64,000 nt of DNA, taken from the NCBI GenBank assembly GCA_963575745.1, contig CAUYUJ010000060.1, positions 1-64,000 on the forward strand, read 5' to 3'. The translations under genes were made by a program, and so were the position numbers. Origin of the DNA: Prorocentrum cordatum. Its lineage: Eukaryota. Positions 28,125-29,430 of this stretch are shown piece by piece. Position 1 is the stretch's first letter; every line of letters begins with the position of its first letter. Below the pieces are notes generated by a model. It was not told the origin of the DNA and searched no databases. It saw only the letters and a list, made by a program, of their open reading frames with translations.

Positions 28125-29430
28125 GCCCCTCGATGGCCCATCGGCCAGGTTCAACTCGACGGGCAACCACCTGCAGTAGCCGCGGAACCTGCAAACCATC
28201 TGGATGATCCCCGCGACGCGCGCCTGGTGGAGCAGGCCCCCGGCCGACGATCGGCCCTTTCTATGGACACCCAAACTCACCAGGGAATCCGTGAAGAACA
28301 GGACTCGGTGTCCCCAACTCTGCGACGTACGGCTGAGATGTCTTTGTACGGCCACGACGTTGCGCAGCTCCAAAACGTTGTTGTGCTCCTGATTGGACCA
28401 CCTCCCCTGGAAGAGCAGGTGCCACTTCTTCTCCACCCAGTGACCCAGCAAGGGCATCCCTGGACCTGTCGCTCGCACAACTCGCTCTCGATCTCCGTGG
28501 AGCTTCACTCTCGCGCCGCGGGGCACTGACTCCCAGCGCGGTTCCAGTTCCTGCAAGATAGAGGCGCGCGCCTCGCAAAGCTCCAACGAATAAACACACG
28601 CCAACTGCGCCCACCTCATACCACAAAGAAATCGCCCATTCAAATCGCGGCGCGGTCGCCCAGTCCGGCTGCGTCGCCAGAACGCACACTCGCACTTCAG
28701 CTCTAGCTCCATTATCATCTGCACGTTCCTGATGAGGGTGGTCGGCTTCTTCCACTCCTCTCCACGCACGCAATAGTCCACCTACACGCGGCACGCGCCG
28801 TCCGACTTCGCGAGGGCCTCCAGCGGCGGGAAGTCCCAGATCAAACTGCCCCTGGGGTTCTCCAGAGCGAACCAACCCCAGCCGCATGCAAATCTCGACA
28901 ACCTCCACGGCCACCATCGCCAACGCGTTGCCCTCGTCGATCTGGTCTTGGCCTCGCTTGCTCAGGCCGCGCAGTGCCCACATATGATCGGCCGATCTGA
29001 CCGGGGGCCACCGTGCCCTCGAGAACGCGGCACAAGGCGGGGCCAGATGTACCCACCAATACCAGCGCGCCCGCAGCCTCCGCAAGAGCAGCTCCAAGTT
29101 CGCGGCCACCAGCATGACGAACTCCAAGCCCTTCTCCACGCCCCAGGCCCCCTCCCCAGGACTGCGCCAACGCCCCGACGGCCCCGCAGTCGCGAGCTTC
29201 CCAAGTGCGACACCAGCGCGCCTGGACGGCCCGTGGCAGGCGATCCCCGCAAGTCCTCCTCTTCGCCAGCCGCCCCCAGTTCCCGCTCTATCTCCGTGTA
29301 GGTCATCTCCACCTCTGGCCCCCAAGAGCCGCCATCTCCACGCGCGACCACCCGGCGTGAATACTCCTCCGGGCAGTCGCAGGCCAGGGCCCCATACCCA
29401 TCGTTGGACGCATCCGTCGCGTAGACCCTC
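28125..29430 (-). pseudogene. RNase H split by an inserted C5 cytosine-methyltransferase-like domain
   Basis: The first RNase H motif is VYATDASNDGYG (~29395-29425). MTase-like motifs follow: WVHLAPPCAAFSRAR (~29010-29055), LENPRGSLIW (~28835-28865) and DYC...KKPT. The remaining RNase H motifs come after: EHNNVLE, FFTDSLV, KGRSS, WLPVELNLADGPSR (28125-28430). Confidence 0.8.

Follow-up and report, generated by a model that had tools for sequence, protein, structure and literature searches.

A cytosine-C5 methyltransferase-like domain nested within the RNase H of a DIRS-like retrotransposon family, represented by a decayed copy in Prorocentrum cordatum

Whether one enzyme of a retrotransposon can be built into the fold of another is the question raised by a locus on the minus strand of a 64,000-nucleotide (nt) stretch of the dinoflagellate Prorocentrum cordatum (GenBank assembly GCA_963575745.1, contig CAUYUJ010000060.1, positions 1 to 64,000), hereafter called the window. 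A first reading, made from the sequence only, had noticed that motif 1 (ATDAS) of a ribonuclease H (RNase H) is parted from the remaining motifs (HNNVLE, TDS and NLADGPSR) by ~1 kb carrying the methyltransferase-like motifs PPC, ENP and KKPT. The analysis described here makes it quite probable that the locus belongs to a DIRS-like family in which an active C5-methyltransferase module is nested within RNase H and methylates the element's own complementary DNA (cDNA) in cis; the layout draws on aligned sequences and a predicted structure, the function on what the conserved residues suggest.

The minus strand of the window was read in all three frames, and motif coordinates are given as positions of the whole stretch. 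By three-frame translation the codon of the first RNase H Asp (29414) and that of the Glu (28370) are 1,044 nt apart, and the PPC, ENP and KKPT motifs all lie between them, just as the sequence-only reading had it. The parts of the split domain are as follows.

29382 to 29456, minus strand: N-terminal piece of RNase H, comprising β1 and β2 and bearing the first catalytic Asp (VYATDAS at 29426-29406, GYGALA at 29399-29382)
29420-29406, minus strand: ATDAS, first Asp motif of RNase H, from three-frame translation
28551 to 29230, minus strand: inserted C5-methyltransferase-like domain, decayed, placed by the insert hidden Markov model (HMM) and tblastn, with fold evidence from the relative P0017
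29228-29199, minus strand: motif I of the insert, degenerate and decayed, RPGALVSHLG
29049-29011, minus strand: motif IV, PPC, within HLAPPCAAFSRAR, from three-frame translation
28862-28854, minus strand: motif VI, ENP (FALENPRGS at 28871-28845), from three-frame translation
28781-28734, minus strand: DYC..G..WKKPT segment, VDYCVRGEEWKKPTTL, with KKPT itself at 28751-28740
28697-28680, minus strand: remnant of the Cys/His cluster of the insert, KCECAF
28125 to 28442, minus strand: C-terminal piece of RNase H, placed by HMM and by tblastn to P0001
28424-28398, minus strand: strand β3 of the C-terminal piece, WHLLFQGRW
28385-28365, minus strand: Glu motif of the C-terminal piece, HNNVLEL
28298-28284, minus strand: Asp motif of the C-terminal piece, FFTDS, followed by KGRSS
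28151-28128, minus strand: last Asp motif of the C-terminal piece, NLADGPSR

All four acidic motifs of RNase H (D, E, D, D) are thus legible in the window copy, and the insert keeps its PPC and ENP, motif I having decayed. The N-terminal piece of RNase H aligns to residues 10-98 of the relative P0013 (tblastn), and the C-terminal piece is 64.6% identical to P0001 over 206 alignment columns (tblastn; 66% by phmmer). A profile of RNase H plus insert built from the relatives matches two open reading frames (ORFs) of the window, 28781-27678 with E=5.4e-63 and 29544-28264 with E=7.4e-23, and the split layout is therefore not due to chance. An HMM of the insert alone, likewise built from the relatives, matches three window ORFs (E=3.1e-24, 1.6e-12 and 0.0019).

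The window copy is a dead pseudogene: it is interrupted by several frameshifts and by two in-frame stops, and the middle of its recombinase has been deleted. The stretch spanning RNase H and the insert is not a single open frame, as the frame changes near 29187-29148 and at ~28871 and a TAG stop at 28784-28782 has to be read through; these frame changes and the TAG, together with the decayed motif I, mean that the window holds a pseudogene copy of the architecture. The same condition is seen ahead of RNase H.

29460 to 31005, minus strand: reverse transcriptase (RT) region, decayed and in three frames, from tblastn pieces with P0004, P0151 and P0008 in frames -2/-3/-1/-3

By tblastn this region (31005-29460) aligns with the corresponding RT stretch of intact relatives at E 1e-8 to 1e-21. 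A TAA stop (29899-29897) takes the place of the Tyr codon in its Y-V-D-D box, directly ahead of VDDNTGFSL (29896-29870). Over the Pol region as a whole, intact relatives place the window sequence in frames -2, -3, -2, -1, -3, -2 and -3 (tblastn). Pfam searches of 20 ORF translations from this part of the window returned nothing relevant, with no RVT_1, rve, protease or PF00145 match among them.

Relatives were collected by searching protein collections with the window ORF 28781-27678, a query that itself included about 80 residues of the insert; 1,420 proteins were found at E<=1e-3 and 277 at E<=1e-10, and the best 150 of the 1,420 were used. The full-length relatives P0004 (43% identical), P0008, P0015, P0022, P0043, P0083, P0142 and P0151 share one order: RT, x-D-A-S-x-x-G-x-G, about 330 amino acids (aa), W..RW....G.W...EH.NVLE, DS and N.ADGPSR. 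Both the Asp and the Glu motif could be placed in 45 of the 279 collected proteins, and only these were counted for the length of the gap between them. The gap measures 262-402 aa in 39 of the 45; in the other six it is 60-124 aa, with no extra domain. Among the long-gap proteins, 31 carry the domain at 196-339 bits with the insert HMM and eight a decayed remnant (0-67 bits), and the module is therefore dispensable, at least temporarily. Part of the 45-protein sample came from a search with the insert profile and is biased toward the insert; the subset of 27 proteins that came from the first search only holds 16 with an intact module, eight with a decayed one and three with a short gap.

Judged from these alignments, the nested methyltransferase-in-RNase H layout is family-wide and not private to the window copy; the sequence-only reading had named absence from other copies, as in a secondary insertion, as fatal to it. 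A nested transposon was also considered as the identity of the insert, and was ruled out by the collinearity of the stretch with intact ORFs. The relatives with species names are from Prorocentrum cordatum, Symbiodinium natans, S. microadriaticum and Durusdinium trenchii, to which a set of 'Skav' gene models is added, and all are dinoflagellates; the nested or degenerate nested layout is found among the named relatives in Prorocentrum cordatum alone (P0152, P0248). The loop between strands β2 and β3 of RNase H is already enlarged in the relatives that lack the module.

The fold of the split domain was modeled on P0017, a 488-aa record that starts just ahead of the Asp motif and ends past RNase H. 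The AlphaFold2 model, made from 49 aligned family sequences, has a mean predicted local distance difference test score (pLDDT) of 85.3 and a predicted template modeling score (pTM) of 0.64. It begins with strands at residues 5-14 and 18-25 and a helix at 28-36, followed by a low-confidence linker (41-81), a compact α/β domain (84-305), a second low-confidence linker (315-326), a strand at 342-348 and further RNase H elements to about residue 441. Residues 5-25 are the RNase H strands β1-β2 and are equivalent to the N-terminal piece in the window. In a comparison of the model with 48,161 PDB representatives (VIA), the top matches were RNase H1 structures: 4e19_A with Z 12.8, a root-mean-square deviation (rmsd) of 2.7 Å and 121 of 133 residues aligned over model range 4..441, and further RNase H1-type matches in 3u3g_D (Z 12.3) and 3aly_B (Z 11.8). 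Both RNase H pieces assemble in the model as one fold, because the 121 aligned residues need both of them, and the suggestion of the first reading that the two halves be checked for folding together is borne out by the prediction.

The compact domain between them matches C5-methyltransferases. DNMT3A (4u7t_C) was matched with Z 11.3, rmsd 3.6 and 191 residues aligned, the model range beginning at 76 or 82 and ending at 306 or 307, and M.HhaI (10mh_A) with Z 11.3, rmsd 3.8 and 196 residues aligned over model range 82..307; DNMT3B, MET1, DIM-2, DNMT1, DNMT2 and M.MpeI gave Z 8.6-11.1, with DNMT2 at 8.6-9.9. A Foldseek search of the whole PDB produced 42 matches at E<=0.001 (best E 7.6e-5), and all of the matches listed are C5-methyltransferases. 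A lack of methyltransferase similarity in the insert had been set beforehand as the finding that would overturn the first reading; similarity in structure is there. As modeled, the two pieces make up a single RNase H fold in which the four catalytic acidic residues are all present, and the insert, predicted to have the C5-methyltransferase fold, is placed between β2 and β3, in their hairpin.

At the level of sequence the module, about 230-280 aa long, is more divergent. A profile of 19 full-length relatives searched against PDB sequences gave three matches at E<=10, all to DNMT2 (E 0.2-0.3), and a profile of 14 isolated modules gave five, all to C5-methyltransferases (three DNMT2 and two bacterial; E 0.016-0.43), with none to DNMT3 at E<=10. 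The five alignments of the module profile run from motif I (L-x-L-F-S-G) to motif IV (G-P-P-C-x-x-F-S). The UniRef name of one relative, P0188, is DNA (cytosine-5-)-methyltransferase, and among the three closest ESM Atlas clusters one bears a cytosine-5 methyltransferase name (score 0.96).

Motifs I and IV were placed in the canonical numbering by HMMER alignments to DNMT2, and the remaining motifs of the module are those that we take to correspond to the other canonical C5-methyltransferase motifs. Among 31 insert-bearing proteins, the S-adenosylmethionine (SAM)-binding motifs keep the F/Y and the G of motif I in 30 each, the D/E of motif II in 30 and the D/N of motif III in all 31; the catalytic motifs keep the Pro of motif IV in 30 and its Cys in 29, and the Glu of motif VI in all 31 and its Pro in 30. 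The second Gly of F-x-G-x-G varies among the aligned modules; F, G, Cys and Glu are invariant across 14 module sequences from four architectures. The module is most likely an active SAM-dependent cytosine-C5 methyltransferase, because motif I, the acidic residues of motifs II-III, the Pro-Cys and the Glu of motif VI are kept in nearly all intact members. After the K-x-T motif it carries the Cys/His pattern D-x-C, C-x-[C/H], H-x2-L-x-G, a conserved segment that could possibly be a zinc site. Two deep subtypes of the module were noted, one with E-H-P and a G-P-P-P-L-R-S-R insertion and the other with E-N-P.

The element that carries the split domain is bounded by repeats, and the features that define its type are these.

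about 33355 to 26115, minus strand: dead DIRS-like element as a whole, comprising repeats, Pol and a recombinase remnant
33253 to 33355, minus strand: 5' terminal repeat, copy 1 of the short repeat, with its partner at 26481-26584 (blastn, 79% identity over 105 nt)
26115 to 26910, minus strand: 3' repeat block of long (26589-26910), short (26481-26584) and long (26115-26440) repeats
27572 to 28060, minus strand: tyrosine recombinase remnant, from tblastn with P0013, P0037, P0045, P0066 and P0072

The core of the short repeat (33287-33341 versus 26514-26568) is 82% identical, and the copies of the long repeat are 86% identical over 326 nt (blastn); repeat finding returned them as families D1-D3. 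Along the coding strand the order is short repeat, coding region and then long-short-long, that is, split direct repeats, and neither the blastn self-comparison nor repeat finding detected inverted pairs among the repeats flanking the element. Split direct repeats are also present in the PAT-like and Ngaro groups. The N-terminal part of the recombinase, DDATNAIYEKEV (27971-27936), continues the RNase H frame in ORF 28781-27678; a recombinase box, PHDLRHAGAA (27687-27658), stands in another frame and the C-terminal part, RKGRWQTASALQRYTK (27619-27572), in a third, and the central ~160 aa, judged against P0152, are gone from the window. The relative P0090, a 1198-aa protein with RT, RNase H and recombinase, matches PF00589 with E=2e-5 and 24.9 bits, under the 27.1 cut-off, and P0164 has a precomputed PF00589 annotation. 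The relatives carry the RT boxes MGWSW and Y-[VI]-D-D, their Pfam RVT_1 matches being sub-threshold (E 0.014-0.023). Of the features of the DIRS order, RT, an RNase H after it and split direct repeats are found in the window element; for the tyrosine recombinase there are the remnants in the window and the PF00589 evidence from P0090 and P0164. In the text of de Mendoza et al. 2018 (PMC5890265), the repeats of dinoflagellate DIRS-like elements are described as A-coding-B-A-B. That the window element is a tyrosine-recombinase retrotransposon of DIRS-like type, bearing split direct repeats and belonging to a family that occurs in dinoflagellates, is part of the overall reading given at the outset and shares its good probability.

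Between the 5' repeat and Pol lie 2.2 kb (31010-33250, minus strand) with ORFs of 156-319 aa and no Pfam match, presumably a Gag-like region. Around the element the window is GC-rich (about 60-70%) and laden with repeats. Self-comparison revealed no second copy of the element within the window, the terminal repeats and a decayed fragment at 24805-22661 being all that was found.

By sequence and predicted structure, Pol in this family runs from RT through RNase H β1-β2, a flexible linker, the whole but highly divergent domain of C5-methyltransferase fold, a second linker and RNase H from β3 to its end, and on to the tyrosine recombinase. In the mechanism proposed, linkers of roughly 40 and 15-25 residues would tether the module beside the RT-RNase H junction; to judge from retroviral RT structures, it would sit on the RNase H sheet at its junction-facing end. 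So tethered, the module would have the nascent cDNA within range and could methylate it in cis, ahead of integration by the recombinase. The nested layout would probably enable the element to methylate its own DNA copy.

The history of the insert was addressed with a quick maximum-likelihood tree of RT and RNase H without the insert (33 rows, midpoint root, support by the Shimodaira-Hasegawa-like approximate likelihood ratio test, SH-aLRT), from which proteins lacking most of RT or of the C-terminal RNase H were excluded. Proteins with an intact or a decayed insert fall into one 23-row clade (SH-aLRT 94), and the insert-free P0162 and P0164 branch outside it. The insert-free P0012 lies inside the clade with P0022 and P0042 (support 100) and retains both linkers, and its module has therefore been lost; its nested position points to loss and not to late gain of the insert. 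Three more proteins, P0117 and the insert-free P0090 and P0108, have nested positions too, behind nodes supported at 86-93. P0153 has a contiguous RNase H with the module after it and is nested beside P0142, P0043 and P0044; in a tree of the module itself (32 rows), its module clusters with the P0142 and P0129 modules (support 90), suggesting that the module was relocated within a lineage. In the P0004/P0151 group the module tree conflicts with the RT tree, and the module subtypes there do not track the RT/RNase H tree; a cassette exchanged at the RNase H loop may be the cause, or simply poor resolution of the trees.

The module also occurs in other positions. A distant second clade, P0154-P0161 (support 100), has RT, a contiguous RNase H, the module and then the recombinase. 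Of 114 further proteins found with the module profile, 17 are nested, 10 have the order RT, RNase H, module and 10 the order module, RT, RNase H; one Durusdinium protein combines RT, RNase H and methyltransferase, in that order, with a recombinase. The remaining 77 carry the module without the RT or RNase H of the nested family, and several of these are polyproteins of Copia type in which integrase and RVT_2 flank the module (e.g., P0196 and P0208; PF00665/PF07727). In P0233 and similar proteins the module adjoins a DUF4326 domain, and in the S. kawagutii model P0279 it follows weak matches to a LINE-type endonuclease and RT. A second and more decayed fragment of such an element lies in the window itself.

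22661 to 24805, minus strand: second, more decayed element fragment, with the C-terminal part of RNase H followed by the module (ORFs 24805-23855 and 23851-22661)

It matches the profile of RNase H plus insert with E=2e-9 and 5.9e-12 and the insert HMM with 1.6e-12, and is ~25% identical to P0004, P0013 and P0151 (tblastn). The Pro-Cys of its module is changed to Pro-Arg, and no RT or recombinase was recognized around 22661-24805. A broader and tentative reading, which we hold to be possible though less likely than its negation, is that the module represents a distinct, unrecognized clade of C5-methyltransferase fold that travels as a cassette among dinoflagellate retroelements, that self-methylating retroelements are greatly undercounted because PF00145 is blind to the module, and that the nested form is the first retroelement RNase H to enclose a second enzyme. 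The cassette would then occupy the β2-β3 loop of RNase H, the position after RNase H, that before RT and that between the integrase and RT of Copia elements, with LINE-like elements perhaps to be added.

Several observations weigh against the nested, self-methylating reading. The window copy is decayed, its TAG stop included, and cannot encode a functional product, and the evidence for the fold rests on a relative that is 33-37% identical to the window's subgroup and not on the window copy. The PF00145 HMM, to which the sequence-only reading had looked for recognition of the insert, failed to provide it: there is no match on the window ORFs, none of 43 relatives reaches the 22-bit cut-off, and the one sub-threshold match is P0189 (12.6 bits, E=0.089). 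The PDB sequence matches are marginal in E-value. Motif VI is E-H-P and not E-N-V in 22 of the 31 proteins. No Q-x-R-x-R motif VIII is evident, a K-x-T with an invariant K and near-invariant T standing in its place (matched by eye), and the target-recognition domain is almost absent, represented by the ~40-aa segment with the Cys/His pattern that precedes an A-x-x-Y-P helix. The module is decayed in eight of the 39 long-gap relatives. The tree was quick and midpoint-rooted, and several of its deciding nodes have a support of only 86-94. Short-chain dehydrogenases, as generic Rossmann folds, matched the insert with Z 8.1-9.7, about 1.5-3 Z units under the DNMTs; a generic Rossmann or dehydrogenase identity was considered separately and ruled out by the Pro-Cys and Glu motifs and by the Foldseek ranking.

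Among the alternatives, the one that fares best is that nothing here is new and that the element has one of the two domain orders published for SymbioDIRS-Dnmt3, with the DNMT between RT and the part of RNase H that Pfam can see. This is unlikely, yet it has to be taken seriously. The paper gives two Pol domain orders, A-coding-B-A-B repeats and a divergent RT missed by Pfam, the last two as in the present element (PMC5890265), and the relatives likewise show several orders (17 nested, 10 methyltransferase-RT-RNase H and 10 RT-RNase H-methyltransferase among the 114). One published order may indeed be the nested layout drawn as RT-DNMT-RNase H. Against this, the published DNMTs were, in the paper's account, detected with PF00145 and cluster with Dnmt3 (PMC5890265); the module here escapes PF00145, and in the PDB its profile picks up DNMT2 and bacterial enzymes and no DNMT3 at E<=10. 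The recombinase is a separate ORF in the published description and is fused to Pol here, both in the frame of the window and in P0152, P0090 and P0013. The paper further states that Copia elements are without any DNMT domain, and the module is present in the Copia-type P0196 and P0208 of the collections searched; no mention of a split RNase H was found in its text (PMC5890265).

A second alternative accepts the fold and denies the chemistry: the insert would be a nucleic-acid-binding or scaffold module beside RNase H, or a cofactor-binding regulator. Its distance from PF00145, the unrecognizable R-x-R of motif VIII with a target-recognition region of ~40 aa, the change of Asn to His in motif VI of 22 of 31 proteins and the decayed module in eight of 39 long-gap relatives all speak for such a role. 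Catalytic residues would be expected to disappear from a module that only binds, and what is seen instead fits selection on catalysis: of the 31 proteins, 29 keep the Cys, 30 its Pro, all 31 the Glu of motif VI and 30-31 the residues of the SAM pocket in motifs I-III, and F, G, Cys and Glu do not vary in 14 sequences from four architectures. A role without methylation is accordingly judged rather improbable. In a further alternative, the module would be a DNMT2-like RNA m5C methyltransferase acting on template RNA, primer RNA or an RNA/DNA hybrid and not on double-stranded cDNA. The best PDB sequence matches are indeed DNMT2 tRNA methyltransferases, the module is built into a domain that handles RNA/DNA hybrids, its region for recognizing duplex DNA is minimal, and de Mendoza et al. 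raised RNA methylation for a LINE-borne DNMT (PMC5890265). The DNMT2 matches span only motifs I-IV, which are common to all C5-methyltransferases, and by structure DNMT2 stands at Z 8.6-9.9 versus 11.3 for DNMT3A and M.HhaI, which leaves RNA methylation a slender prospect. That the split is a secondary event or artefact (a private nested insertion, chance motifs, or an ATDAS in the RT connection with a complete RNase H downstream) might be suggested by the many frameshifts of the window copy and by the absence of any Pfam model recognizing a part of it, and is exceedingly improbable given that the whole stretch is collinear with intact ORFs from many independent contigs, that only 60-124 aa part the same Asp and Glu motifs in insert-free relatives, and that the RNase H sheet of the model is completed only by residues 4-25, with 121 residues aligned.

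If the nested, self-methylating reading is correct, it has bearing beyond this element. Dinoflagellates have genomes with heavy methylation and abundant retroelements, and a retrotransposon-borne methyltransferase is one of few cases of a mobile element with its own epigenetic writer. A methyltransferase in the RNase H fold would put the writer where the RNA template goes and the DNA copy appears, and the hypothesis of cDNA methylation is therefore directly testable with one polypeptide. The module is missed by curated HMMs and is found in at least four positions, Copia-type polyproteins included; surveys of transposon-borne DNMTs based on PF00145 are therefore incomplete. For the study of protein evolution this is a clean case of an enzyme nested in an enzyme, with natural controls in the relatives in which the module has been lost, decayed or relocated.

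Elsewhere in the window there are trinucleotide arrays, (TCA) of about 364 copies, (TCC) of 194, (TCA) of 219 and (CGA) of about 628 spanning 1.9 kb, which lie at 1893-2983, 10441-11016, 17440-18898, 38072-39959 and other positions; the AT skew of 0.84 at 38-40 kb is due to the (CGA) array. Satellite arrays of ~100 bp are found toward both ends of the window, at 2986-4680 and 55210-56832, and their consensus units resemble reverse complements of each other by eye. A 53-bp repeat is present at 54723-54915 and 57378-57571.

Capture of cytosine methyltransferases by dinoflagellate DIRS and LINE elements, which the sequence-only reading had given as established, is indeed published: DNMT-bearing DIRS-like and LINE elements of Symbiodinium were reported by de Mendoza et al. 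2018, who also proposed that a Pol-embedded DNMT methylates cDNA in cis, so that the first reading's idea of cDNA methylated during its synthesis is already found there, and CG methylation by the SymbioDIRS-Dnmt3 domains has been shown in yeast (PMC5890265). As far as the published description goes, the present family resembles SymbioDIRS-Dnmt3 in being dinoflagellate and DIRS-like, in its A-coding-B-A-B split repeats and in an RT too divergent for Pfam, and also in having a domain of cytosine-methyltransferase type in the Pol ORF with RT and RNase H, in more than one domain order. It is set apart from that description by a module that PF00145 does not detect and that has no special sequence affinity to DNMT3 (the structure comparison ties DNMT3A with M.HhaI, both at Z 11.3), by the position of the module, which interrupts the RNase H fold instead of flanking it, and by a recombinase fused to Pol, seen in P0152, P0090 and P0013 as single proteins, although these gene models could be wrongly fused. 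The first reading was not aware of any description of the split architecture, and in the full-text literature searched, whose coverage leaves most subscription journals outside, no description was found of a methyltransferase nested in an RNase H fold, nor of a PF00145-invisible module or its presence in Copia-type polyproteins. Within that literature, methyltransferase-bearing DIRS elements are thus known as a class, and the nesting, the divergence beyond PF00145 and the presence in Copia elements are the aspects for which no published description was found.

With the canonical C5-methyltransferases M.HhaI, DNMT3A and DNMT2, the module shares the predicted fold and the motif order of F-x-G in motif I, an acidic motif II, Pro-Cys in motif IV and Glu in motif VI. 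It differs from them in its size of ~230-280 aa, with almost no target-recognition domain, in the K-x-T and the frequent E-H-P, in its Cys/His cluster (C...C-x-[C/H]...H-x2-L-x-G) and in falling under every curated sequence threshold. That an RNase H-like fold can be split by an entire additional domain and nonetheless come together is familiar from the DDE transposases (hAT/Hermes, RAG1 and the P element); their inserts are not independent enzymes, and the host fold is the catalytic core of a transposase and not a retroelement RNase H. Nearer in kind are the DIRS1/PAT-like elements, for which a Dam-like adenine methyltransferase after RNase H is on record (Goodwin and Poulter, cited in PMC5890265 and in bioRxiv 10.64898/2026.05.21.726589). 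These are likewise tyrosine-recombinase retrotransposons whose Pol has a DNA methyltransferase module beside RT and RNase H; going by those citing accounts, theirs is an N6-adenine methylase of an unrelated family that follows a contiguous RNase H, whereas the module described here is nested and has, as predicted, the C5-cytosine fold.

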